A stretch of DNA of 64,000 nt from Eledone cirrhosa (GCA_964016885.1 OZ024743.1:255378001-255442000); one strand, 5' to 3'; shown: positions 1,020-47,290, counted from the first letter of the stretch. Notes: a model not told the origin generated them from the sequence alone. Numbers and translations are program-made.

Positions 1020-3878
1020 CATCATCATCATCATCATCACCGTTTTACGTCCGTTCTTCCACGCTAGCATGGGTTAGACGGGTTGTCCTGTTGTGGGCAG
1101 TGTCTGGTCGGCTGACCATGCCTTGCTCATACAGGAACTGATCTGGCTTGATTTCTACAGCTGGATGCCCTTCCTAACACCAACCTCATTTACAGTGAGT
1201 GCTGGGTGCTTTTTCGTGGCGCCTACACGTCCACTTTACAGTGTGGGCTGGGTGCTTTTTTGCCGTGGCACCTCCACGACCACCTTGCGGTGGTGGGGGG
1301 GGGGGGGGCATATTGTTTATATGCTTCAGCATGTACCCATGGGAGGTCGGGTACCCTGTATTACTGCGTGACGCCAGAAGTCACGGTCATGTGTCATTGA
1401 CTTTGAGAGGTGTAGTTGGGTAAGGTCGGCTTTTATCACCTCATCCCAAGTCATCTTGGGTCTCCCCACTCCGCGGTTTCCATCAACTTCTAGTGCTCTG
1501 CACCTTTTTATGCAGCTGTCATCCTTCATACGCATCACATGTCCATACCAGCGTAACCGCCTCTCCTGCACGCAGCATTTGATTCCTCTTATGCTCAGTC
1601 TCTCTCTCAATTCATTTATGCTTTGTCGTTCACGTATATTACTGTTACACATCCATCGGAGCATGCAGGCTTCGTTTCTCTCTAATCTACGTAAGTCTTC
1701 CACCTTCAGCGCCCAGGTCTCACTACCATGCAACATCGCTGTTCGGATACACGCATCATACAGTCTGCCTTTCATTCTGAGGGAGAAGCCTTTTGCAGCT
1801 AGCAGTGGTAGTAGTTCCCTAAACTTCTTCCATCCCGTTCTTACCCTAGTTATTGTACTTTCTGAGCACCCACCTCCGTTGCTAATTCGGTCACCTAGGT
1901 AGCAGAAGCTGTCTACTGTTTCTACAGGGCCCTCCCAGAGATTGGTGGTACTTGTTTCCTGTGGCTGTTTGCTTGCTGTTTCAGCACAGCTGCTGCATGT
2001 GAATCCTACATTCTTAATTAAGCTTCCTGAGATCCCGCTACATCTCTTGTGTACCCATTGTTTGCATTTGGGGCAAAGAATGGAGTTCCTACCTACACCT
2101 TTCCTACATACTGAGCAAGGCCATTTCCCTGAGGGGATCTGGGTTCTGTTTTCTCGTCTACTTATAAGGATGTTAGTCTTTGTCATGTTGACTTTGAGGC
2201 CCTTTCTCTCTAGTCCCTGCTTCCAGGTTTGGAATTTATTCTCTAGTTCTACCATAGATTCAGCTATGAGTGCGAGGTCATCAGCATACAGGAGTTCCCA
2301 TGGGCATCCGGTCTTAAACTCCTCCGTTATTGCCTGCAGGACTATGATGAACAGGAGAGGGCTAAGAACAGAGCCCTGGTGGACCCCAACCTGTACGCTA
2401 AATTCCTCGCTATACTCATTGCCAATCCTAACTTTGCTGACTGCTCCCCTATACATGGCTTGTACCGCTTTCACAAGCCATTCATCTACTCCTAGTTTTC
2501 TAAGAGCCCACCAGATTACTGCACGTGGAACTCTGTCAAAGGCTTTCTCAAGGTCGACAAATGCCAAGTAGAGTGGCTTACTTTTAGCTAGGTACTTTTC
2601 CTGTAATTGCCTCACAAGGAAGAGCGCATCAGTGGTGCCTTTCCCTGGTACAAACCCAAATTGCATCTCGTCTATATTCACCCGGTCCCTAATCAGCTGT
2701 GCTATAACTCTTTCTGTTACTTTCATGACCTGGTCCATCAACTTTATACCTCTATAGTTTCCTCTATCTAGTGCATCGCCTTTACCTTTGTAGCAGTTGA
2801 CAATGATGCTACTGCACCAATCTTTTGGTATGGCCCCCTCTAGTATTACCTGGTTAACGATACGTGTGGTTATAGTGTGACCTACAGACCCAGATGCCTT
2901 CAGCATCTCGGCAGCTATACCCGATGGACCGGTTGCCTTCCCTATCTTCATATCTCTGATTGCCTTACTTACTACGCTGCCGCTGACTTGTACTGCTGGT
3001 CCCTCTATAGGGTCTACGTGGGGTAGGGTCTCTTCTTCCCATGCATTCTCCTCATTTAGTAATCTATCATAATGACTCTTCCATGCATCTTTCTTCTCAG
3101 CACTTGTGAGGGCAAGCTCACCTTTATCATTCCGGATACACTTCTCTCCAATGACATCACAACTATCTCTGACACACTGCCTCGCAATCTTGAATACCTC
3201 CTGTTTCTGGTCCTCACGTTGTAAAACATGCTTGAATTTTCTATCCTCTGCTTCCCTCCTAGCTAAGTATACTTGTCGCCTAGCTTCCCTCTTGGTCTCT
3301 ATGTAATGTACCCTGCTCCCCCCGTTCTTCCATTCTTTCCATGCCTGTCTCTTGGCCTTGACTGCTTCATCTACCTTATTGTTCCACCACCAAGTCACTC
3401 TCCTCCTGCTTGAGGTCTTACTCCAGCCACAAACCTCATCCGTCGCCTCTAGTAAGTTATTTTTTAGGAACTCCCAGTTCTCTTCTACGTTAAATGTCTC
3501 TATCTGTTCTTCTTTACTGTCGTAGGCGTTGAGTAAAATATCTTTAAATCTGTTACTGGTTGAGGGGACTTTCAGCTTCCAGATCTTTCTTCTCCAGGTT
3601 GGCCTCTGTTTCAGGGCTCGTCTAGTTCTGACCGTGAGGTCGCTGACAACTAAGCTATGTTGGGATGTACATTCCTCACTAGGGAAGGCTTTTGTGTTTA
3701 CGACCGTCCATCTGTCACGTCCTCTGATGAGGATAAAATCTAACTGACTAGAGTGCTCCCCTGATCTATAGGTGATCAGGTGGTTGTCGGGTTTTTTAAA
3801 GTTTGTGTTACATATCGACATGTCATTGGCGTCGCAGAATTCTAGAAGTCTGAATCCTTCCTCATTCCTTGTGCCATA
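1018..3878 (-). mobile_element. 5'-truncated RTE-clade LINE with 3' UTR and (GAT)n tail
   Basis: Continuous ORF to the stop at 1326, followed by a UTR ending GGACGTAAAACGGT(GAT)n; the 5' end abuts a microsatellite. Confidence 0.93.
1326..3878 (-). CDS. RTE ORF: C-terminal part of APE, reverse transcriptase and embedded PHD finger (5'-truncated; the ORF-track N-terminus is microsatellite artefact)
   Basis: Motifs: SQLDFIL and TSQHSLV (APE); [48 protein letters not shown] and [16 protein letters not shown] (RT and RTE C-terminus). Confidence 0.92.
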
Positions 3879-5279
<1,401 letters not shown>

Positions 5280-5353
5280 CTCTTTTACTCTTTTACCTGT
5301 TTCAGCCATCCGGCTGAGGCCATGCTGGGGCACCGCCCTTGTTGCTACACATT

Positions 5354-8300
5354 TTATCTCCAGCCTGTATAGGTTGGCCACTGGTGTAGGAGGGAGTTTG
5401 TTGCTGCTGCCCTTAGGTTTCCCTCGTGTCTTGCTGTGGGCTCATCCGGGATCCTGGATAACAAGGTGTCGAGATGTTTCTTAAAGACATCCACCTCCAC
5501 GTCATGCAAGTCTCGCAGATGCCTCGGCAGCCTGTTGAAGAGTTGAGGGCCCTTGAATCCCAGGCTATTGCAATACCTGCTCCTTATTCTAGATGTGGAA
5601 GACGGGACCTTTGGCACCACACAGTGACGTCCTGTTCGACGGTTGGTCCAGCTCCCAATGCCAAAGTTTGGTGCTAGTCCCTCCAGGATTTTCCACATGT
5701 AGATCACTGCGTATCACTCCCGTCTTCGCTCCAAGGAGTAGAGGTTCAGTTCTTTCAGCCTCTCCCAGTAGCTTGTCTCCCTCATCTTGGCAATCCTCTT
5801 GGTATAGCTTCGCTGGATTGCCTCAAGCTCTGTGGTTAGTTTGACACTATGGGGTGACCACAGCTGGGAGCAGTAGTCCAGGCAGCTTAGGACAAAAGTC
5901 CTCCACAGTGTCAACATGGTGTCTCGATCTCTTGTAAGGAAAGTCCTCAAGATCCAGCCAGCGAATCGTCTACATGCTGTCGCCACCTTCATGATGTGTG
6001 AAGAAAAAGATGCATCATCGCTCATGTCTATGCCCAGGTCTCGTATCGATTTTGACACGGGGATATCGGTCCCTCCTGGTCCTGTGTAGCTGTGTTCCGC
6101 TATATTTGTGTTTGTGTTTGCAGGTTTGTATTGTAGGGCTTGGAATTTGCCAGCATTAAACTGCATGTTGTTTTCTTCCGCCCATCTGTATATGGCATCC
6201 AGATCCTGCTGTAAGAGGGCAGCGTCAGCCGGGTTTTTGATTGCCTGTGCTACCTTAGTGTCATCAGCATAGCTAGTGAGGGATGTTGTTGCATGCACCA
6301 CAGAGGGCATGTCCGAGAGAGCCACCAAAAAGAGTAGTGGTCCCAGGACTGTCCCCTGAGGCACCCCACTTGTTATCGGTGTTTCCCTCGAGAGGGCCCC
6401 ATTTGCTGCGACTGCCTGGCTTCTGTCCCTTAGGAAGCCATGCAGCCACTCACCCACTTTTCCAGTTATGCCGAGTCCGTGTAGTTTGTGCCATATCATT
6501 CCGTGGTCGACCTTGTCAAAGGCCTTCGCAAAGTCAAGATATATCACGTCTACATGTGAGCTGTCTAGCAGTTGTCTCAGTACCCAGTCGTAGTGATGTA
6601 GCAGCTGTGTAAGGCAGCTTCTTCCTGGGCGGAAGCCATGTTGCGTGCCAGTCAGGCGGTCATTTTCTTCGAGGAAAGTGATTAGTTTCTTTCTGACGTC
6701 TCGCTCCATGACCTTACTGATATGCGACGTCAGGGAGACTGGCCTATAGTTCTTGGCCTCCGCTCTACTAACTCCTTTATGGATAGGGCATATTGTGCCT
6801 TCTTTCAGCTCCCTGGGTAGTACACCGCTAGCCAAGGAGCTTCTGAAGAGCATCTTCAGTGGAGTTGCTAAGGCCCGCTTACATATTTTTAGGAGAACTG
6901 CTGGGAATCCATCAGGTCCAGCAGCCAAGTCTGTTCTAATTTCATCAATGGCGTACACCACATCCTTCTCCGTTATGTCTATGTGGTTGATGGTTGCCAT
7001 TTCTTGATGTAGTGTTGTGGCATCAAAGAACTCCCCTGGCTTCGTTATTTGCATGTGCCTCAGTGGACATGTGAAGACACTTTTGTACTGTTCGTTCAGT
7101 ATTTCACATATCTCTTGGGGATTTTCGGTAATGAACCGTCCGTGTGGAAGAGTGGTCCAATCTTGCAGTGTACTGAGGCAGTTTCTTTTGCAAATTTAAA
7201 GAAGGCCTTAGGGTTTGTTTTAATGTTTTCTATGGCCCTGTTCTCTTTCCTTGCCCTCTCATTCTCATGTGAAAGCTTGAGTACAATCTCGGTGTCAAGT
7301 AGTGCACGTTTCAAATAGGATTCCTTCTTGTTTTGGTTTTGTTGACTATTCAACTGGTTTGAGAGTTTAGTTCTACGTCTCATAAGGATTTTCCTATCTC
7401 TGGGAATAAGATTTTTGTGTCTGTTTGCCTCTTTCTCCGGGACACACTTTTTGCATATGGTGTGTATCGTTGTCATGAAGTGTTGAAATTGTGTGTTAGT
7501 GTCTTGTGTGGCGATGTTTGCACTCCATGTTTGCTTCCGGATTTCACTCTTAATCTTCTTCCAGTCAGCCCTGTAGAAGTTAAGGCTGGATAGCGTCCCG
7601 GAGCTTCTTGGTGGTTTTGTCTCTGTTGGTTCTCCTGGACCACATATCATTAGCTCTACCAAGTTATGATCCGAGAGAATTGTTGGTGTCACCTTTACAT
7701 TGTGGATGAGCACTTCGTTGTTTGTAAAACAGAGGTCCAGGACATTTTCGCCTCTTGTTGGGAGGAGTATTGCTTGCTCCATGAACAGCCTGTGTGTGAG
7801 GGCCAGCAGGGATTCCGTCTGTCTCTGTTCTATTGACGTCATTCCAGGGAGGAGGTGGCCCTCAGGCCATTTGACCTTTGGTAGGTTGAAGACTCCCAGC
7901 AGTAGGATGTTGAGACCCTGGTCCAGTTTGTCAAGGACCTCTTCTATCCTACTTAGGCTATCCTCAAATTTACCCTCATGACTGGGGGCATCGGGCGGCC
8001 GATATGTGACACATATTACCGTCTGTAGTTGCTTCATATATATTATCAGTGTGTCACAGACTGAGTTTGAATGTGTCAACAGTACAATTGGTGTGACATC
8101 TTCACGGATATACAGAGCAACCCCACCATGAGTTCTCTCCTTCCTGTCCGAAAGAAATACAGTATATTTCGGTATATGTATTTCTGCATCTGCTATACTG
8201 CTTGTCAGGTGCGTTTCGGTTAGTGCCATGCATAGTGCTTGATTGCTTATGGCTAAGTCTCCCAGGTAGGAAATTTTACTCATGTTGCTGAGTTTCACCA

Positions 8301-8394
8301 GGCCCCTGACATTCAGCAGCAGCACTGGTGTGACTTTTGGGGTGCCAGTAATGGCTGTCGGTATGACACCTGGTCTGGTGTCAGCGGCGGCCAC
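5354..8394 (-). pseudogene. CR1-group ORF2 (APE + RT) with two frameshifts
   Basis: Motifs LNVRGL, ALTETHL, GGVALY, YRPP, GVFN (canonical GDFN), LDLCFT, LSDHN; NYRPVSLTS, QHGFRPGRS, YLDFAKAFDKV, GVPQGTVLGP, YADDT, YSLERRRE. Frame changes near 7120 and 5715. Confidence 0.9.
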
Positions 8395-8755
8395 TCTGGG
8401 TCCCTTAACTGCGGTGGTCTCGAGTGCTGGTGTGGATGACCCTGGCTCTGGAGACGATGCAGCCAGGTCAGCTGTCCCACAATCTTCTCTGCCATCACTA
8501 AAAAGTTTTTCTGATCTGCTGCTGCCATCTGTATCTCGTCGGCATGTGCGTGCCTTCTCCTTGTTGGTGCAGCACGCACGACATCAGCATACTTCTGGAG
8601 CGGCTTATTTCGGCTTAGGCTGGGGCTTGTTGCGCGAGTATGATGGGCAAAGTTCGTTTGAGAGCTAGCGTGGGCGAATCTGCATCCCATCCCTGTCTCT
8701 CCATGCCAGCATGTCCCGTTCTTGAAAAACTTGCACCTTACTTGGGGTTTTTTTT
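8313..8755 (-). CDS. C-terminal remnant of LINE ORF1 with a CCCH-type zinc finger
   Basis: [22 protein letters not shown] (C-x7-C-x8-C-x3-H) directly upstream of and overlapping the ORF2 start; truncated by a (TA)n tract. Confidence 0.6.
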
Positions 8756-8841
8756 TTAATGTATATATGTGTATATATGTGTATATATATATATATATGT
8801 GTATATATGTGTATATATGTGTATATATATATATATATGTG

Positions 8842-8894
<53 letters not shown>

Positions 8895-8921
8895 GTATAT
8901 ATATGTATATATATATATATG

Positions 8922-11900
8922 TAAACGGAAAAAATGAAACGATATTTCATTTCCCACTCTTAGTACGGCTGTTACTTAAATATAAGTATGTACACGTACA
9001 TACATATATGTATACCGACGTACAGTAGTATGTATATATATATATATACATACATGCACACATATATATATGCACGTATGGATTCACCGAACATTTATTA
9101 TAATGCTCGGTGTGTTTGTAAACAAACATCCCGTATTAAGCCGTAGTGTCTAGCAACCACCGTTGCTCGTTTGTTCAACACTGACAAAGGAACGCTGTAC
9201 TAGTTTCAAGCTTGTTAGCTATCGTCAGCAACGTATACCTTCCTGCCAGATTGTTGAACGTATATACTTACCTTATGCATATTAACGGCTGAGAAGCCCA
9301 ATATGCATATCGAGTGGGTTAATCGGCCGGGTGCACCGAAAACGATAAACGGAAAAAATGAAACGATATTTCATTTCCCACTCTTAGTACGGCTGTTACT
9401 TAAATATAAGTATGTACACGTACATACATATATGTATACCGACGTACAGTAGTATGTATATATATATATATACATACATGCACACATATATATATGCACG
9501 TATGGATTCTCCGAACATTTATTATAATGCTCGGTGTGTTTGTAAACAAACATCCCGTATTAAGCCGTAGTGTCTAGCAACCACCGTTGCTCGTTTGTTC
9601 AACACTGACAAAGGAACGCTGTACTAGTTTCAAGCTTGTTAGCTATCGTCAGCAACGTATACCTTCCTGCCAGATTGTTGAACGTATATACTTACCTTAT
9701 GCATATTAACGGCTGAGAAGCCCAATATGCATATCGAGTGGGTTAATCGGCCGGGTGCACCGAAAACGATAAACGGAAAAAATGAAACGATATTTCATTT
9801 CCCACTCTTAGTACGGCTGTTACTTAAATATAAGTATGTACACGTACATACATATATGTATACCGACGTACAGTAGTATGTATATATATATATATACATA
9901 CATGCACACATATATATATGCACGTATGGATTCACCGAACATTTATTATAATGCTCGGTGTGTTTGTAAACAAACATCCCGTATTAAGCCGTAGTGTCTA
10001 GCAACCACCGTTGCTCGTTTGTTCAACACTGACAAAGGAACGCTGTACTAGTTTCAAGCTTGTTAGCTATCGTCAGCAACGTATACCTTCCTGCCAGATT
10101 GTTGAACGTATATACTTACCTTATGCATATTAACGGCTGAGAAGCCCAATATGCATATCGAGTGGGTTAATCGGCCGGGTGCACCGAAAACGATAAACGG
10201 AAAAAATGAAACGATATTTCATTTCCCACTCTTAGTACGGCTGTTACTTAAATATAAGTATGTACACGTACATACATATATGTATACCGACGTACAGTAG
10301 TATGTATATATATATATATACATACATGCACACATATATATATGCACGTATGGATTCACCGAACATTTATTATAATGCTCGGTGTGTTTGTAAACAAACA
10401 TCCCGTATTAAGCCGTAGTGTCTAGCAACCACCGTTGCTCGTTTGTTCAACACTGACAAAGGAACGCTGTACTAGTTTCAAGCTTGTTAGCTATCGTCAG
10501 CAACGTATACCTTCCTGCCAGATTGTTGAACGTATATACTTACCTTATGCATATTAACGGCTGAGAAGCCCAATATGCATATCGAGTGGGTTAATCGGCC
10601 GGGTGCACCGAAAACGATAAACGGAAAAAATGAAACGATATTTCATTTCCCACTCTTAGTACGGCTGTTACTTAAATATAAGTATGTACACGTACATACA
10701 TATATGTATACCGACGTACAGTAGTATGTATATATATATATATACATACATGCACACATATATATATGCACGTATGGATTCACCGAACATTTATTATAAT
10801 GCTCGGTGTGTTTGTAAACAAACATCCCGTATTAAGCCGTAGTGTCTAGCAACCACCGTTGCTCGTTTGTTCAACACTGACAAAGGAACGCTGTACTAGT
10901 TTCAAGCTTGTTAGCTATCGTCAGCAACGTATACCTTCCTGCCAGATTGTTGAACGTATATACTTACCTTATGCATATTAACGGCTGAGAAGCCCAATAT
11001 GCATATCGAGTGGGTTAATCGGCCGGGTGCACCGAAAACGATAAACGGAAAAAATGAAACGATATTTCATTTCCCACTCTTAGTACGGCTGTTACTTAAA
11101 TATAAGTATGTACACGTACATACATATATGTATACCGACGTACAGTAGTATGTATATATATATATATACATACATGCACACATATATATATGCACGTATG
11201 GATTCACCGAACATTTATTATAATGCTCGGTGTGTTTGTAAACAAACATCCCGTATTAAGCCGTAGTGTCTAGCAACCACCGTTGCTCGTTTGTTCAACA
11301 CTGACAAAGGAACGCTGTACTAGTTTCAAGCTTGTTAGCTATCGTCAGCAACGTATACCTTCCTGCCAGATTGTTGAACGTATATACTTACCTTATGCAT
11401 ATTAACGGCTGAGAAGCCCAATATGCATATCGAGTGGGTTAATCGGCCGGGTGCACCGAAAACGATAAACGGAAAAAATGAAACGATATTTCATTTCCCA
11501 CTCTTAGTACGGCTGTTACTTAAATATAAGTATGTACACGTACATACATATATGTATACCGACGTACAGTAGTATGTATATATATATATATACATACATG
11601 CACACATATATATATGCACGTATGGATTCACCGAACATTTATTATAATGCTCGGTGTGTTTGTAAACAAACATCCCGTATTAAGCCGTAGTGTCTAGCAA
11701 CCACCGTTGCTCGTTTGTTCAACACTGACAAAGGAACGCTGTACTAGTTTCAAGCTTGTTAGCTATCGTCAGCAACGTATACCTTCCTGCCAGATTGTTG
11801 AACGTATATACTTACCTTATGCATATTAACGGCTGAGAAGCCCAATATGCATATCGAGTGGGTTAATCGGCCGGGTGCACCGAAAACGATAAACGGAAAA

Positions 11901-14275
11901 AATGAAACGATATTTCATTTCCCACTCTTAGTACGGCTGTTACTTAAATATAAGTATGTACACGTACATACATATATGTATACCGACGTACAGTAGTATG
12001 TATATATATATATATACATACATGCACACATATATATATGCACGTATGGATTCACCGAACATTTATTATAATGCTCGGTGTGTTTGTAAACAAACATCCC
12101 GTATTAAGCCGTAGTGTCTAGCAACCACCGTTGCTCGTTTGTTCAACACTGACAAAGGAACGCTGTACTAGTTTCAAGCTTGTTAGCTATCGTCAGCAAC
12201 GTATACCTTCCTGCCAGATTGTTGAACGTATATACTTACCTTATGCATATTAACGGCTGAGAAGCCCAATATGCATATCGAGTGGGTTAATCGGCCGGGT
12301 GCACCGAAAACGATAAACGGAAAAAATGAAACGATATTTCATTTCCCACTCTTAGTACGGCTGTTACTTAAATATAAGTATGTACACGTACATACATATA
12401 TGTATACCGACGTACAGTAGTATGTATATATATATATATACATACATGCACACATATATATATGCACGTATGGATTCACCGAACATTTATTATAATGCTC
12501 GGTGTGTTTGTAAACAAACATCCCGTATTAAGCCGTAGTGTCTAGCAACCACCGTTGCTCGTTTGTTCAACACTGACAAAGGAACGCTGTACTAGTTTCA
12601 AGCTTGTTAGCTATCGTCAGCAACGTATACCTTCCTGCCAGATTGTTGAACGTATATACTTACCTTATGCATATTAACGGCTGAGAAGCCCAATATGCAT
12701 ATCGAGTGGGTTAATCGGCCGGGTGCACCGAAAACGATAAACGGAAAAAATGAAACGATATTTCATTTCCCACTCTTAGTACGGCTGTTACTTAAATATA
12801 AGTATGTACACGTACATACATATATGTATACCGACGTACAGTAGTATGTATATATATATATATACATACATGCACACATATATATATGCACGTATGGATT
12901 CACCGAACATTTATTATAATGCTCGGTGTGTTTGTAAACAAACATCCCGTATTAAGCCGTAGTGTCTAGCAACCACCGTTGCTCGTTTGTTCAACACTGA
13001 CAAAGGAACGCTGTACTAGTTTCAAGCTTGTTAGCTATCGTCAGCAACGTATACCTTCCTGCCAGATTGTTGAACGTATATACTTACCTTATGCATATTA
13101 ACGGCTGAGAAGCCCAATATGCATATCGAGTGGGTTAATCGGCCGGGTGCACCGAAAACGATAAACGGAAAAAATGAAACGATATTTCATTTCCCACTCT
13201 TAGTACGGCTGTTACTTAAATATAAGTATGTACACGTACATACATATATGTATACCGACGTACAGTAGTATGTATATATATATATATACATACATGCACA
13301 CATATATATATGCACGTATGGATTCACCGAACATTTATTATAATGCTCGGTGTGTTTGTAAACAAACATCCCGTATTAAGCCGTAGTGTCTAGCAACCAC
13401 CGTTGCTCGTTTGTTCAACACTGACAAAGGAACGCTGTACTAGTTTCAAGCTTGTTAGCTATCGTCAGCAACGTATACCTTCCTGCCAGATTGTTGAACG
13501 TATATACTTACCTTATGCATATTAATGGCTGAGAAGCCCAATATGCATATCGAGTGGGTTAATCGGCCGGGTGCACCGAAAACGATAAACGGAAAAAATG
13601 AAACGATATTTCATTTCCCACTCTTAGTACGGCTGTTACTTAAATATAAGTATGTACACGTACATACATATATGTATACCGACGTACAGTAGTATGTATA
13701 TATATATATATACATACATGCACACATATATATATGCACGTATGGATTCACCGAACATTTATTATAATGCTCGGTGTGTTTGTAAACAAACATCCCGTAT
13801 TAAGCCGTAGTGTCTAGCAACCACCGTTGCTCGTTTGTTCAACACTGACAAAGGAACGCTGTACTAGTTTCAAGCTTGTTAGCTATCGTCAGCAACGTAT
13901 ACCTTCCTGCCAGATTGTTGAACGTATATACTTACCTTATGCATATTAACGGCTGAGAAGCCCAATATGCATATCGAGTGGGTTAATCGGCCGGGTGCAC
14001 CGAAAACGATAAACGGAAAAAATGAAACGATATTTCATTTCCCACTCTTAGTACGGCTGTTACTTAAATATAAGTATGTACACGTACATACATATATGTA
14101 TACCGACGTACAGTAGTATGTATATATATATATATACATACATGCACACATATATATATGCACGTATGGATTCACCGAACATTTATTATAATGCTCGGTG
14201 TGTTTGTAAACAAACATCCCGTATTAAGCCGTAGTGTCTAGCAACCACCGTTGCTCGTTTGTTCAACACTGACAA
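8922..14275 (-). repeat. Tandem array of a 424-bp hammerhead-containing unit, left arm (~12.6 units; ribozyme sense on minus strand)
   Basis: Exact 424-bp period (ORF-track starts 8947, 9371 ... 14035). Only two substitutions seen (about 9510 and 13526). Confidence 0.98.
9173..9259 (-). ncRNA. Type I hammerhead ribozyme motif (representative; 12 intact minus-strand copies at 424-bp spacing to 13837)
   Basis: Reverse complement of the motif at 14662-14748; the core reads TCGTCAG at 9222-9228 on plus. Confidence 0.8.
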
Positions 14276-17061
14276 TAGCTAACAAGCTTGAAACTAGTAC
14301 AGCGTTCCTTTGTCAGTGTTGAACAAACGAGCAACGGTGGTTGCTAGACACTACGGCTTAATACGGGATGTTTGTTTACAAACACACCGAGCATTATAAT
14401 AAATGTTCGGTGAATCCATACGTGCATATATATATGTGTGCATGTATGTATATATATATATATACATACTACTGTACGTCGGTATACATATATGTATGTA
14501 CGTGTACATACTTATATTTAAGTAACAGCCGTACTAAGAGTGGGAAATGAAATATCGTTTCATTTTTTCCGTTTATCGTTTTCGGTGCACCCGGCCGATT
14601 AACCCACTCGATATGCATATTGGGCTTCTCAGCCGTTAATATGCATAAGGTAAGTATATACGTTCAACAATCTGGCAGGAAGGTATACGTTGCTGACGAT
14701 AGCTAACAAGCTTGAAACTAGTACAGCGTTCCTTTGTCAGTGTTGAACAAACGAGCAACGGTGGTTGCTAGACACTACGGCTTAATACGGGATGTTTGTT
14801 TACAAACACACCGAGCATTATAATAAATGTTCGGTGAATCCATACGTGCATATATATATGTGTGCATGTATGTATATATATATATATACATACTACTGTA
14901 CGTCGGTATACATATATGTATGTACGTGTACATACTTATATTTAAGTAACAGCCGTACTAAGAGTGGGAAATGAAATATCGTTTCATTTTTTCCGTTTAT
15001 CGTTTTCGGTGCACCCGGCCGATTAACCCACTCGATATGCATATTGGGCTTCTCAGCCGTTAATATGCATAAGGTAAGTATATACGTTCAACAATCTGGC
15101 AGGAAGGTATACGTTGCTGACGATAGCTAACAAGCTTGAAACTAGTACAGCGTTCCTTTGTCAGTGTTGAACAAACGAGCAACGGTGGTTGCTAGACACT
15201 ACGGCTTAATACGGGATGTTTGTTTACAAACACACCGAGCATTATAATAAATGTTCGGTGAATCCATACGTGCATATATATATGTGTGCATGTATGTATA
15301 TATATATATATACATACTACTGTACGTCGGTATACATATATGTATGTACGTGTACATACTTATATTTAAGTAACAGCCGTACTAAGAGTGGGAAATGAAA
15401 TATCGTTTCATTTTTTCCGTTTATCGTTTTCGGTGCACCCGGCCGATTAACCCACTCGATATGCATATTGGGCTTCTCAGCCGTTAATATGCATAAGGTA
15501 AGTATATACGTTCAACAATCTGGCAGGAAGGTATACGTTGCTGACGATAGCTAACAAGCTTGAAACTAGTACAGCGTTCCTTTGTCAGTGTTGAACAAAC
15601 GAGCAACGGTGGTTGCTAGACACTACGGCTTAATACGGGATGTTTGTTTACAAACACACCGAGCATTATAATAAATGTTCGGTGAATCCATACGTGCATA
15701 TATATATGTGTGCATGTATGTATATATATATATATACATACTACTGTACGTCGGTATACATATATGTATGTACGTGTACATACTTATATTTAAGTAACAG
15801 CCGTACTAAGAGTGGGAAATGAAATATCGTTTCATTTTTTCCGTTTATCGTTTTCGGTGCACCCGGCCGATTAACCCACTCGATATGCATATTGGGCTTC
15901 TCAGCCGTTAATATGCATAAGGTAAGTATATACGTTCAACAATCTGGCAGGAAGGTATACGTTGCTGACGATAGCTAACAAGCTTGAAACTAGTACAGCG
16001 TTCCTTTGTCAGTGTTGAACAAACGAGCAACGGTGGTTGCTAGACACTACGGCTTAATACGGGATGTTTGTTTACAAACACACCGAGCATTATAATAAAT
16101 GTTCGGTGAATCCATACGTGCATATATATATGTGTGCATGTATGTATATATATATATATACATACTACTGTACGTCGGTATACATATATGTATGTACGTG
16201 TACATACTTATATTTAAGTAACAGCCGTACTAAGAGTGGGAAATGAAATATCGTTTCATTTTTTCCGTTTATCGTTTTCGGTGCACCCGGCCGATTAACC
16301 CACTCGATATGCATATTGGGCTTCTCAGCCGTTAATATGCATAAGGTAAGTATATACGTTCAACAATCTGGCAGGAAGGTATACGTTGCTGACGATAGCT
16401 AACAAGCTTGAAACTAGTACAGCGTTCCTTTGTCAGTGTTGAACAAACGAGCAACGGTGGTTGCTAGACACTACGGCTTAATACGGGATGTTTGTTTACA
16501 AACACACCGAGCATTATAATAAATGTTCGGTGAATCCATACGTGCATATATATATGTGTGCATGTATGTATATATATATATATACATACTACTGTACGTC
16601 GGTATACATATATGTATGTACGTGTACATACTTATATTTAAGTAACAGCCGTACTAAGAGTGGGAAATGAAATATCGTTTCATTTTTTCCGTTTATCGTT
16701 TTCGGTGCACCCGGCCGATTAACCCACTCGATATGCATATTGGGCTTCTCAGCCGTTAATATGCATAAGGTAAGTATATACGTTCAACAATCTGGCAGGA
16801 AGGTATACGTTGCTGACGATAGCTAACAAGCTTGAAACTAGTACAGCGTTCCTTTGTCAGTGTTGAACAAACGAGCAACGGTGGTTGCTAGACACTACGG
16901 CTTAATACGGGATGTTTGTTTACAAACACACCGAGCATTATAATAAATGTTCGGTGAATCCATACGTGCATATATATATGTGTGCATGTATGTATATATA
17001 TATATATACATACTACTGTACGTCGGTATACATATATGTATGTACGTGTACATACTTATAT
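14276..17061 (+). repeat. Same 424-bp unit inverted, right arm (~6.6 units; ribozyme sense on plus strand)
   Basis: Reverse complement of the left arm with period 424 (14368, 14792 ... 16912); ends in a (TA)n tract. Confidence 0.98.
14662..14748 (+). ncRNA. Type I hammerhead ribozyme motif (representative; repeats every 424 bp, 6 intact plus-strand copies)
   Basis: ACGTTG-CTGACGA-T-AGCT-AACA-AGCT-T-GAAA-C-TA-GTA^CAGCGT. Stem I ACGUUG/CAGCGU is extended by AAGG/CCUU, CUGGCA/UGUCAG and GUUCAACA/UGUUGAAC. Stem III is the palindrome ACUAGU. Predicted cleavage after 14723. Confidence 0.8.
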
Positions 17062-18988
<1,927 letters not shown>

Positions 18989-22770: not shown

Positions 22771-22981
22771 ATAAGAAGGATTACATGCTCTACGAAGGGG
22801 TGCTAAAAATCCTGGCTTTAAGGGTATTGTGAAAGGGTAGAGCTGTTGCATTTACAGGGAGATAAAACTGCTGGAATAAATGTGTGAATATGAGAATGAA
22901 ATATATTGAATAAAATCATATCTAACTGTTATTTCAGTTCCTGATTATTACTGGAATTCTATAAGAATCCAACATTCATAA

Positions 22982-23073
22982 TTTTCAACAAACAAAGAGA
23001 GTGCTAAGCTCTGAGGAATACCAACAGTATGAAACAGAGATCTGTCAGCTTATCTCTCTTTGTTTGTTGAAAA
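22982..23073 (+). ncRNA. Canonical type I hammerhead ribozyme, copy 1
   Basis: TAAGCT-CTGAGGA-ATAC-CAACA-GTAT-GAAA-CAG-AGAT-CTG-TC^AGCTTA, with a 20-bp stem I extension TTTTCAACAAACAAAGAGAG/CTCTCTTTGTTTGTTGAAAA. Cleavage predicted after 23046. Confidence 0.9.
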
Positions 23074-23299
23074 AAGAGGTAAGTGACATAGTCACTACTT
23101 TAAAACAATAGCATAAGGTCTTCAAAATGCTTTTAATTAAGCATACAGTGTATTACCAAATACACTATATACACATTCATATATACATCGCTATTTCAGA
23201 GCACCAATTCTAATTTTCAATTTTTGCTGGACTGCCAACCGCTCTGTATAATCAGTTGCTGATTATTACTAGAATTTTATAAGAATCCAACATTCATAA

Positions 23300-23390
23300 T
23301 TTTCAACAAACAAAGGAGTGATAAGCTCTGAGGAATACCAACAGTATGAAACAGAGATCTGTCAGCTTATCTCCCTTTGTTTGTTGAAAA
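23300..23390 (+). ncRNA. Canonical type I hammerhead ribozyme, copy 2
   Basis: Identical core (CTGAGGA at 23328, GTC at 23361-23363); stem I GATAAGCT/AGCTTATC plus a long extension. Confidence 0.9.
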
Positions 23391-23523
23391 AAGAAGTAAG
23401 TGTCATAGTCACTATATAAAACAATAGTGTAAGGTCTTCAAAATGCTTTTAATTAAGCATACAATGTATTACCAAATACACTATATATGCATTCATATAT
23501 ACATCGCTATTTCAGAGCACCAA

Positions 23524-23578
<55 letters not shown>

Positions 23579-35639: not shown

Positions 35640-36045
35640 TTCCCTGAATGTCCTTTCTAACACCAATTACTTTGCAGAGTGTTCTGGGTGCATTTTATTG
35701 TGGCACCAGGACTACCACTTTACAGAATGTACTGCATGCATTTTATTGTGGCATTACCACTACAACTTTATAGAATGTACTGGGTGCATTTTATTGTGGC
35801 ACTAGCACTACCACTTTACAGAATGCACTGGATGTATTTTATTGCAGCATAAGCACTACCTCTTATAGAGTGTACTGGATTAATTTTATTGCAACACCAG
35901 CACTAACACTTACAGAGTGTACAGGGTACATTTTATTGTAGAACAAGGCACTACTACTTTCAAAATATATTGGGTGTATATTATCATTGTACCAATGCTA
36001 TTACTTACAGCAAATTATGGGTGCATTTTATCATGGTATCAACAC
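35640..36045. repeat. ~38-bp degenerate minisatellite (~10 copies) within an RTE-type 3' UTR
   Basis: Consensus about CCACTTTACAGAGTGTACTGGGTGCATTTTATTGTGGCACCAGCACTA, preceded by the RTE tail motif in minus orientation. Confidence 0.8.
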
Positions 36046-46119: not shown

Positions 46120-47290
46120 TTTATCATCATCATCATCATCATCAACGTTTAACGTCCGTGTTCCACGCTTGCATGGGTTTGGACGGGGGTAGTCCCACTT
46201 GAGGCAAGAGTGATTGTCTTGCTCGCATAGGACTGTCTGGCAGGTTTTCTACAGTTGGATGCCCTTCCTAACACCAACCACATTTACAGTGTGGGTCTGG
46301 GAGGTTTTTACCGTGTTGCCTACACGGCCACATTACAGCGTGGACTGTGTGTTTTTTTGTCGTGACACCTACACGATCTCATTTGTTTCGGCCTCGATGG
46401 CGCGGCACCAACATAACTTTACATAGAACGGGGTGGTGTGGATCGGGTGGGGGTGGGGGTGGTGGGACGGGGTGTATTTTGTTAGAGATGCCTACTGGCT
46501 GGAGTAGGTTTTACTATATATTTAGGTAAGGCGGGTCTTCTCTGTTACTGAGTACCGCCAAAGGTCTCGGTCCAGTGACATTGTCTTGGAGAGGTGTAAG
46601 TGTGTGATGTCGGAGTTTATCAGCTCGTCCCAGGTTTTTCTAGGTCTGCCTATTCCGTGACTACCGTCTATCTTTATTGCCCTGCACTTTGTTATACAGC
46701 TATCGACTTTCATGCGCATCACGTGTCCATACCAACGTAGCCTTCTCTCGAGTAAACAACATCTGATCCCTCTTATCTCTAATTTTTTCCTTAGTTCGTT
46801 TATGCTTTGCCGTTCACGTATATTACTGTTACACATCCAGCGGAGCATGCAAGCTTCGTTCCTCTCTAGTCTGCGTATATCCTCTGCACACAATGCCCAG
46901 GTCTCACTGCCATGCAGCATTGCTGTTCGTATGCAGGCATCGTACAACCTGCCTTTCATTTTTAGAGAGAACCCTTTAGCAGCTAATAGTGGTATAAGCT
47001 CTCTGAACTTTTTCCAACCAGTTCTGACTCTAGCTACAGTACTTTCAGAGCACCCTCCCCCACTGCTGATTTTATCGCCCAGGTAACGGAAGCTGTCCAC
47101 TATTTCTATAGAACCCTCTGCGCAATTGAAAGAGCTAGTAGTTTGTGGGCACTTGCTGCTACTTATTGCACCAGAGCACCGGCCACATGTAAAATCTATG
47201 TTCTTAGTTAGCTTACCTGTGATCCCACTACATCTTTTATGCACCCATACTTTGCATTTAGGACATAAAATGGAGTTTCTACCTACGCCT
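46120..47290 (-). mobile_element. 5'-truncated RTE LINE with 3' UTR
   Basis: ORF 46522-47244 including the PHD C-terminal half, FRYLGD and RRLRWYGHV; (GAT)n tail. Confidence 0.92.

Follow-up and report, generated by a model that had tools for sequence, protein, structure and literature searches.

The kilobase-scale palindrome examined here is genuinely present in the sequence, far above chance, and represents the usual layout of a very abundant, young, (TA)n-dwelling repeat family rather than a singular event. It lies in a 64,000-nt stretch of Eledone cirrhosa DNA (GCA_964016885.1, OZ024743.1:255378001-255442000), referred to below as the window, in which all positions are counted from the first letter. 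The Eledone repeat is a further, real case of the insertion layout that is known from Penelope-like elements (PLEs). As the palindrome is ordinary for its family, it should be taken neither for a rare rearrangement nor for a ribozyme-targeted break.

Layout of the locus

The locus consists of an inverted pair of 424-base repeat arrays, together about 8 kb long, with the following features.

5290-8583, minus strand: LINE with APE and RVT_1 domains, between two (TA)n tracts beside the array, its 3' end abutting (TA)n
8760-8921 (TRF row 8760-8923), no strand: left (TA)n/(TATATG)n microsatellite, the presumed target (TRF and sequence reading)
8922-14275, minus strand, which is the ribozyme-sense strand: '307 arm', 12.6 tandem 424-bp units (repeat mapping)
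Abutting the left (TA)n, minus strand: 3' end of the 307 arm, unit offset 306/307, ...TTTTTTCCGTTTA (sequence)
8922-8979, minus strand: one-sided 'tail', unit offsets 249-306 (exact match to the unit; family-wide end rule)
13526, no strand: single variant at unit offset 366, unmirrored at 15059, the sole mismatch between the arms
14269-14275, plus strand: CTGACAA, terminus of the left arm and junction microhomology with the CTGACGA core box at 6/7 positions (sequence)
14276-14309, plus strand: palindrome 'spacer' of 34 nt, which opens the right arm and consists of normal unit sequence (offsets 7-40)
14276-17061, plus strand: '248 arm', 6.6 tandem 424-bp units in ribozyme sense (repeat mapping)
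14662-14748, plus strand: example of the hammerhead-like domain, one of 18 intact copies in the locus (descriptor hit and fold)
Abutting the right (TA)n, plus strand: 3' end of the 248 arm, unit offset 248, ...GTACATACTTATAT
17062-18988, no strand: right (TA)n microsatellite, about 1.9 kb

The array inverts at ...CAACACTGACAA|TAGCTAACAAG, between 14275 and 14276 (CTGACAA|TAGC); the complement of CTGACAA, TTGTCAG, forms part of the extended helix I. A first-pass annotation of the window had located this junction inside the hammerhead core, with CTGACAA at the site of CTGACGA, and both its position and the match at six of the seven positions were confirmed. The same annotation gave arms of ~2.75 kb and a 34-nt spacer. 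These values hold for the palindrome proper (11521-14275 and 14310-17064, 2,755 nt each and 99.96% identical, around the spacer at 14276-14309), but the left array really extends over 8922-14275. As this array counts 12.6 units and the right one 6.6, the 2.75-kb 'arm' is the extent of the shorter array only.

The ribozyme-sense strands of the two arms run apart from the junction (head-to-head, 5'-to-5'), in agreement with the orientation proposed earlier: six CTGACGA core boxes are found on the plus strand in the right arm and 12 TCGTCAG boxes, their reverse complements, in the left arm. Both outer ends enter (TA)n (8760-8921 and 17062-18988), again as described. All units of the locus are alike save for 13526, 9510 and the junction base, and the arm comparison verified that the variant at 13526 is not mirrored at 15059. 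The tail is present at the outer end of the 307 arm, where it is predicted to fold into the hairpin GGGAAATGAAA-TATCG-TTTCATTTTTTCC, and is missing from the outer end of the 248 arm. No ORF of at least 180 aa was found within 9000-16890.

The repeat family across the genome

The 424-bp unit is nearly identical across the genome and its arrays occur on many contigs. Genome-wide, the pattern '307 end + (TA)n' has 3,857 exact sites and the pattern '248 end + (TA)n' has 1,655; that thousands of insertions are almost identical indicates that they are recent. The first-pass annotation had suggested a search for similar junctions in other arrays, and such junctions are common. Two arms diverge 5'-to-5' in 19 of the 21 long arrays, and an inverted arm accompanies 34 of 60 unselected 307-end insertions. 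The arms of these 60 loci were classified with a k=12 tally, which was concordant with reading by eye and replaced automatic arm calling at k=11; the latter left 21/60 loci unclassified because unit offsets 150-236 are self-complementary. Over all fetched loci, 67 strand switches are of the -/+ type and none is a true +/- switch, the two apparent cases being separate insertions that lie back to back across (TA)n. Nearly all arrays have (TA)n on both flanks.

The outer termini are fixed. About 15 long arrays pair a 307 terminus with one at 248-251; among the 34 unselected pairs, the arm opposite the 307 end stops at 241-251 in 28 and at 300-310 in none. The 307 and 248 termini, 59 nt apart, are thus used one per arm. 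The exceptions, seen among 20 older copies, are one array with 248/248 ends and four single 248 arms. Where only one arm is present, its 3' end is the anchored one and the points of 5' truncation are scattered; the short 307 ends are severely 5'-truncated copies, as read from their flanks (the all-vs-all BLAST being dominated by (TA)n). The centre, on the other hand, varies: the 17 mapped junctions fall at 17 different unit phases, so the position of the present junction within the CUGANGA box is incidental. Junction overlaps measure 0-7 nt and reach at least 2 nt in 7/17 (p about 0.01), while 6/17 junctions contain a filler of 3-23 nt. The 32-mer across the present junction is found at a single place in the 3.0-Gb assembly. 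A DNA foldback transposon, a Helitron and eccDNA reintegration were considered and rejected, given that the centre differs in every copy and that single arms are 3'-anchored with variable 5' ends; the termini, too, are not TC...CTRR.

These family-wide regularities bear on the possibility of an assembly or long-read fold-back artefact, which the 99.96% identity of the arms might suggest. Among the listed contigs of runs X1-X5 and X7 (Logan) none bridges 14275|14276, and run X6 contributed no contig; as words of the unit reach a depth of ~13,000, the missing bridging contig neither supports nor refutes the junction. A fold-back chimera would, however, mirror the left flank, whereas the right arm ends at 248 instead of 307 and in other flanking DNA. 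It would also be expected in both polarities, against a count of 67 to 0, and the contigs of run X2, which were assembled independently, show other head-to-head joints of the unit. Neither a mirrored outer end and flank nor random polarity is seen at the locus or in the family, and we regard an artefact as extremely improbable. For annotators and assemblers, the family is a caution that kilobase-scale perfect palindromes in (TA)n tracts can be real.

The hammerhead-like domain

Each unit carries one complete set of core elements in the type I order (CUGACGA ... GAAA ... U-A|C), on the sense strand only. The conserved positions C3-U4-G5-A6-N7-G8-A9, G12-A13-A14, A15.1-U16.1 and H17 are all present, and the descriptor of the motif had 0 matches in 20,000 shuffles; within the core box, sequence variation was seen solely at N7, a free position, which is C or U. 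In the predicted fold of the copy at 14662-14748, helix I is a long rod, followed by CUGACGA, a helix II of 4 bp over a U.U mismatch, and GAAA. Helix III is weak, with a single A-U pair and a CUAG loop, and the predicted cut site is 14723|14724. According to PMC7229834, amphibian hammerhead motifs with a similarly weak helix III are said to act as dimers.

The Rfam hammerhead models gave no match at the gathering score, at E<=10 on 1 kb or at E<=10 on 131 nt. The miRNA-like Rfam matches at 14222-14363 correspond to the palindrome centre scored as a hairpin, and a mir-684 match corresponds to the helix I rod. The 5' ends of the arms were considered as a possible trace of cleavage, with a pile-up at the predicted cut (offset 31). 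They show a broad excess at offsets 13-47 (19/98 versus 8.1 expected) with no sharp peak at offset 31, and because the truncation points of single arms are scattered as well, these ends are not evidence of cleavage. The hammerhead-like core is complete and non-random. The copy altered by the junction has A in place of G8 and lacks the 5' strand of helix I; the earlier description of this chimeric core as probably dead is reasonable, and it concerns one of the 19 copies in the locus.

Origin of the paired arms

Each ribozyme-sense 3' end is directly seen to point outward, into (TA)n. We consider it probable that a single round of retrotransposition yields the pair, with reverse transcription (RT) on the same kind of RNA being primed from both ends of a cut (TA)n target. 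Two antisense cDNAs would be started, one at offset 307 and the other at offset 248, and each would be extended over many unit lengths (here 12.6 and 6.6) on a circular or multimeric template. The cDNA 3' ends would then be joined via microhomology, in this case CTGACAA on TCGTCAG; the retained A of the primer strand suggests annealing and extension of the 307-arm cDNA. The 59-nt one-sided tail would represent the part of the template that separates the two RT start sites.

The enzyme would most likely be the RT/GIY-YIG endonuclease of a PLE working in trans, in which case the family would be non-autonomous and retrozyme-like. The link to PLEs that the first-pass annotation had drawn is sustained by the structure of the locus and its family, which combine tandem units and (TA)n targets with a 5'-truncated inverted arm and an extension at one end only. 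GIY-YIG domains are abundant in the genome (150/150 scored hits above the cut-off, from 10,595 candidates), and no similarity to the unit was found at 12 GIY-YIG loci of these 10,595 candidates.

The first-pass annotation had instead explained the palindrome by snap-back: one rolling-circle cDNA would fold on itself where it carries a short inverted repeat and prime its own copying into the second arm. Self-priming has been proposed for head-to-head pLTRs (Arkhipova 2013, PMC3846280), and a native short inverted repeat, CTGAC(G)A...T(T)GTCAG with its halves 34 nt apart, coincides with the junction. With 6.6 units against 12.6, the 248 arm of this locus is also the smaller of the two, as expected of a copy, and the sequence of the locus taken by itself is compatible with snap-back. 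A copy cannot exceed its template, yet the 248 arm is the longer one in 21/34 unselected pairs and in 4/15 long arrays (L039, L040, L042 and L043). Self-priming would furthermore produce either the same terminus followed by inverted target or random ends, whereas the partner end is fixed at about 248 (28/34) and is never 307 plus inverted target. The arms of L037 differ in unit type, and the mismatch at 13526/15059 is weak evidence in the same direction. We therefore do not favour snap-back and think it unlikely.

L1 twin priming gives 5'-to-5' inversions with microhomology, and the geometry of two priming target ends could also be produced by a (TA)n-targeting APE-type LINE in place of a PLE. 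Such a LINE is found at 5290-8583, on the minus strand beside the array and in the same (TA)n tract, and its 3' end abuts (TA)n. This 3' end, however, resembles neither unit terminus. PMC11167929 reports that a one-sided tail and extension of both strands are specific to PLEs, and hammerhead-bearing tandem repeats are tied to PLEs in PMC7229834 and bioRxiv 10.64898/2026.07.22.740005. A LINE as the source of the enzyme is in our opinion decidedly unlikely.

(TA)n tracts are fragile and prone to cruciforms. A one-armed array might have been inverted in situ by DNA fold-back, through replication template switching or double-strand break repair at a short inverted repeat, and the microhomology of 6/7 positions at a native short inverted repeat agrees with this. 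Inversion in situ would nevertheless not provide the new arm with the canonical 248 terminus in (TA)n that is common to 1,655 other sites, nor would polarity be uniform over 67 junctions, which leaves it very unlikely.

Priming from both target ends can be extended to a more complete model, in which array, inverted arm and tail are all made in one integration. Both of the cut (TA)n ends would use one small and probably circular ribozyme RNA as template, from 307 and from 248 and never from the same site, and RT would make up to a dozen turns before 5'-to-5' joining. We advance this model tentatively, as a possibility that falls somewhat short of an even chance. If true, the family would preserve the unsolved integration mechanism of PLEs in a natural record of about 3,900 insertions, and retrozyme 'satellites' would be born as arrays instead of being amplified later. 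That the arms span many whole units argues that arrays of this kind are made at insertion. One circular template per event was rejected as a general rule: L048, in which both arms are built of 422-nt units, fits, but L037 does not, since its unit variants differ between the arms and in blocks inside one arm. The strict one-of-each rule for the start sites is not explained by published data, in which the PLE protein has no strand preference between the two sites in vitro.

Comparison with known systems

Double-strand breaks give rise to palindromes when the DNA folds back at short inverted repeats, as in Tetrahymena rDNA and gene amplification. The Eledone arrays share the central short inverted repeat and the small asymmetric spacer with such palindromes, but differ by their fixed outer termini, their uniform polarity and their thousands of dispersed copies, which point to products of transposition and not of local repair.

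In L1, 5' inversions reportedly arise via twin priming, a mechanism attributed to work by Ostertag and Kazazian from 2001. The two systems would be alike in that two target-primed cDNAs are joined 5'-to-5' with microhomology, in a sizeable share of the insertions. The Eledone family differs in the absence of poly(A), in its fixed internal start sites and in a higher frequency (34/60). In addition, both segments span the same repeated template, resulting in a palindrome instead of a simple inversion.

Metazoan non-LTR retrozymes are described in Cervera & de la Pena 2020 (PMC7229834) and Li, Clavereau & Pollet 2026 (bioRxiv) as tandem repeats of ~170-400 nt with type I hammerheads and circRNA expression. 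The Eledone repeat is similarly dispersed and tandem, with one type-I-like hammerhead per unit, and it shares the 1-bp helix III, the palindromic tetraloop and the U.U at the base of helix II with the hammerhead motifs of the axolotl. In contrast to retrozymes, its predicted motif has no Rfam hammerhead match. With this caveat, the family agrees with retrozymes in its dispersed tandem repeats of a few hundred nt, each with a predicted type I hammerhead and no ORF. Term searches of the texts of PMC7229834 and the 2026 bioRxiv preprint returned no inverted or head-to-head arrays, tail or (TA)n targets. The preprint (10.64898/2026.07.22.740005) ascribes arrays to local amplification, whereas the Eledone arrays look made at insertion.

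PLE insertions combine tandem pLTRs with an inverted copy truncated at its 5' end and a tail of 30-40 bp on one side, in AT-rich or (TA)n targets (PMC3846280, PMC8557442 and PMC11167929); Arkhipova 2013 (PMC3846280) and Craig 2021 (PMC8557442) document the head-to-head inversion of pLTRs, the one-ended tail and a bias towards (TA)n. In vitro, the purified PLE protein cleaves and extends both target strands, prefers AT-rich DNA and starts RT at two internal sites with no strand preference between them, the 'tail' being the sequence that separates these sites (Frangieh 2024, PMC11167929). The Eledone family has the inverted 5'-truncated copy, the tail at one end and the (TA)n target of PLE-type insertions. 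It shares tandem copies, a head-to-head inverted arm and microhomology at the 5' junction with PLEs, together with a one-sided terminal extension that would correspond to the template between two RT start sites. It differs in that the unit is a 424-nt non-coding repeat without ORF, that arms reach 12 or more whole units, that the tail measures 59 nt instead of 30-40 nt, and that each arm has one start site (0/34 same-site pairs), in contrast to the lack of strand preference in vitro.

No description of head-to-head hammerhead or retrozyme arrays, or of PLE twin priming, was found in a literature search that had most subscription journals outside its reach. Two features were not found in the PLE and retrozyme literature examined: the use of one start site per arm, and arms that cover many whole units. 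In vivo, the clean-ended insertions of this family display the behaviour that a PLE protein had in its first in vitro study, namely priming on both strands and two start sites that define the tail. Hammerhead-bearing tandem repeats are hereby tied to Penelope-type integration by structure, beyond sequence similarity alone.

Inverted arrays in the window

The 424-bp non-coding unit, a tandem repeat with a hammerhead-like motif, runs head-to-tail through a left array and then in the opposite orientation through a right array. The orientation flips at ...CAACACTGACAA|TAGCTAACAAG (14275|14276), and the two arrays are named after the unit offset at their outer ends. The features of this region and its surroundings are as follows.

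3876-5279 and 8760-8921, (TA)n tracts either side of the LINE
5290-8583, - strand, APE-endonuclease and RVT_1 LINE (ORFs 7096-8583 and 5714-7195)
8922-14275, - sense, left array (307 arm)
14269/14276-17061, + sense, right array (248 arm)
22934-23530, short tandem repeat (316 bp x 1.9), unrelated to the 424-bp unit
35669-35960, short tandem repeat (96/48 bp x 3-6), unrelated to the 424-bp unit

The repeat arrays, flip point and spacer described in the first-pass annotation are all present. Its ~2.75-kb arms correspond to the longest in-register palindrome in the window (11521-14275 against 14310-17064, 2,755 nt each, with a 34-nt spacer), which is the extent of the shorter array only, as the left array (12.6 units versus 6.6) is about twice as long. 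The 18 units are identical save for single changes at 13526 and 9510, and unit comparison bears out that the former has no mirror at 15059. Both outer ends indeed run into (TA)n, at 8760-8921 on the left and 17062-18988 on the right. Elsewhere in the window, an open frame at 46522-47289 (- strand), whose PHD-finger match is weak and falls short of the Pfam cut-off, probably represents a host-gene exon.

In a fold-back read or a misassembly, the left flank would be mirrored and both polarities would occur; neither is seen. Within the 3.0-Gb assembly, the 32-mer across the junction is unique. None of the Logan contig pieces listed spans 14275|14276; further head-to-head joints of the unit, at single-copy-like depth, are present in contigs of one sequencing run (X2). 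The palindrome is genuine and typical of what the 424-bp unit family produces. As a single locus it is of low interest by itself.

Head-to-head arms across the genome

A one-unit query against the same genome returned at least 425 full-length matches of ~100% identity on many contigs. Twenty long arrays were fetched in addition to the window, and the first-pass proposal to look for similar junctions in other arrays was fruitful: a - arm is followed by a + arm in 18 of the 20 and in the window, two have a single arm, and the reverse order is absent. The fetched loci together contain 67 -/+ switches (a few counted twice in the overlapping loci L063-L065 and L091-L092) and just two +/- switches, both of which are separate insertions back to back across (TA)n.

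The 17 mappable junctions lie at 17 different unit phases, which indicates independent events and makes the position of the window junction inside the CUGANGA box incidental. Junction overlaps measure 0-7 nt and reach at least 2 nt in 7/17 (16% expected, p ~0.01), and six of the 17 junctions contain a partly templated filler of 3-23 nt. At L063-L065 (G000:C1:19618904-19627372, in the window's own genome), a two-arm insertion occurs three times, ~2.6 kb apart, with the same inner junction (361/272) and ends (248 and 307); this seems to be a tandem duplication of the whole insertion plus flank after integration. Unit pieces of 95-99% identity were also found in runs X1, X3 and X7, labelled as other organisms (A, C and D), so the family or close relatives extend beyond one species label. 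One relative in these runs has a CTGATGA core and an altered helix I 5' strand (ACGGTG).

Fixed outer ends

In the long arrays, the outer end of one arm lies at offset 307 (...TTTTTTCCGTTTAT) and that of the other at offset 248 (...GTACATACTTATAT), both passing into (TA)n; the window ends are 306/307 (left) and 248 (right). The exact 307 end with (TA)n is found at 3,857 genome sites versus 0 for the reversed control, and the exact 248 end with (TA)n at 1,655 versus 22. An in situ fold-back duplication was rejected, as the new arm would not bear a canonical terminus common to 1,655 other sites. The 59 nt between both offsets form a tail present at one outer end only (8922-8979 in the window), and a small hairpin is predicted with offset 248 in its loop.

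An unselected sample was formed from the first 60 307-type sites on contig C1 of this genome. An adjacent inverted arm is present at 34 and absent at 26, and the outer end of this partner lies at 241-251 in 28/34, elsewhere in 6/34 and at 300-310 in none. Single arms are anchored at 307, whereas their 5' truncation points are scattered, as is typical of target-primed reverse transcription. In a second sample (20 sites of the 248 type without an exact 307 partner), most retain a diverged 300-307 arm, while four single 248 arms and one 248/248 pair show that the rule of one 307 end and one 248 end is strong but not absolute.

These arrays also bear on the fold-back self-priming suggested in the first-pass annotation, in which the first cDNA would snap back and be copied; it is not supported as a family mechanism. 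Such a copy cannot exceed its template in length, but the 248 arm is longer than its partner in 21/34 and in four long arrays, and a stop at 248 is unexplained when the template started at 307. Taken by itself, the window locus may have a snap-back origin, as its 248 arm is the shorter arm.

Hammerhead-like motif

Read by hand, each unit contains CUGACGA, a 4-bp helix II over a U.U mismatch, GAAA and A-[CUAG]-U-A|C, together with a long predicted helix I whose 3' strand contains TTGTCAG. A descriptor demanding the full core, 6/6 helix I pairs, at least three helix II pairs and an A-U-closed helix III matches once per unit on a single strand, and never in 20,000 shuffles. No Rfam hammerhead match was obtained at the gathering score, and relaxing the threshold to E ≤ 10 gave none on either 1 kb or 131 nt. 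Given the core and the lack of a curated-model match, we term the motif hammerhead-like. Variation within the core box was seen only as C versus U at the free N7, also in the relative from run X1. Axolotl retrozyme hammerheads are described as having the same two features, namely a palindromic tetraloop on a weak helix III and a U.U at the foot of helix II; such motifs are reported to cleave as dimers (PMC7229834).

The junction core, previously called probably dead, would indeed be inactive judging from its sequence (+ strand CUGACAA, helix I 5' strand replaced), although this affects one of 19 copies. Inner (5') arm ends are over-represented near the hammerhead and helix I rod, at offsets 13-47 (19/98 versus 8.1 expected). 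This excess is spread out and has no sharp peak at the predicted cut (offset 31); it may reflect reverse transcriptase pausing at the stable rod. Every unit also carries a long near-perfect TA-rich hairpin at offsets 149-236 (e.g. 14842-14929), which attracts spurious Rfam miRNA-family matches (mir-297, mir-466 and others) and confuses k-mer strand calling.

Proposed insertion mechanism

From the observed arm anatomy, we infer the following steps. Both strands of a (TA)n site would be cut, and the two 3' ends would each prime on the RNA that carries the ribozyme, at 307 in one case and at 248 in the other. Both antisense cDNAs would then be extended across many units, for which the template must be circular or multimeric, and their 3' ends would be joined via a few bases of inverted microhomology. 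In the window, CTGACAA-3' of the 307-arm cDNA would have paired with TCGTCAG of the other cDNA; the primer's A is kept at the join, which suggests which strand was extended.

The evidence for one template for both arms is mixed. Locus L048 has a 422-nt variant in both arms, which fits a common template. At L037 (G000:C1:392886000-392895999), the variants differ between arms: the + arm (2209-9227) consists of 12 outer CTGATGA units, one 422-nt unit and three inner CTGACGA units, and the - arm (1-2205) of 422-nt CTGACGA units throughout. Such blocks show that the template need not stay the same in the course of the insertion or afterwards; a switch during synthesis or later recombination may account for them.

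Comparison with known elements

The unit family is a retrozyme-like non-coding element with a Penelope-like element (PLE)-type insertion signature. In the literature searched (few subscription journals, main texts without supplements), we found no description of head-to-head arms with a tail in hammerhead tandem repeats, of a rule of one start site per arm, or of multi-unit arms implying that arrays are made at insertion. The latter, which the multi-unit arms imply, differs from the local amplification assumed for hammerhead arrays (Li, Clavereau & Pollet 2026, bioRxiv 10.64898/2026.07.22.740005). These three points are of moderate interest for transposon specialists.

The enzyme could, as a minor alternative, be that of an APE-type LINE, as one adjoins the array in a common (TA)n tract. 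The 3' end of this LINE (...GTAAAAGAGTAAAAGAGTATACATATAT) continues straight into (TA)n, and the LINE may represent another retroelement, unrelated to the unit, that targets or carries (TA)n. For a PLE enzyme, GIY-YIG domains are very abundant in the genome (150/150 scored matches above the cut-off, among 10,595 candidates), some within open frames as long as 1,096 aa; similarity to the unit is absent from the 12 GIY-YIG copies compared out of these candidates.

The PLE link drawn in the first-pass annotation is supported by the tandems, inverted arm, tail and (TA)n target. As described in Arkhipova 2013 (PMC3846280) and Craig 2021 (PMC8557442), PLE insertions comprise partial tandems, an adjacent head-to-head inverted 5'-truncated copy and a 30-40-bp tail on one inverted end, in AT-rich or (TA)n targets. 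Unlike R2 and L1, the purified anole PLE protein, a predicted dimer, cuts both strands of the target and extends both; it starts reverse transcription at two internal RNA sites, the stretch between which is the genomic PLE tail (Frangieh et al. 2024, PMC11167929). The unit family presents the same picture in vivo, with putative start sites at 248 and 307, a 59-nt tail and two diverging arms.
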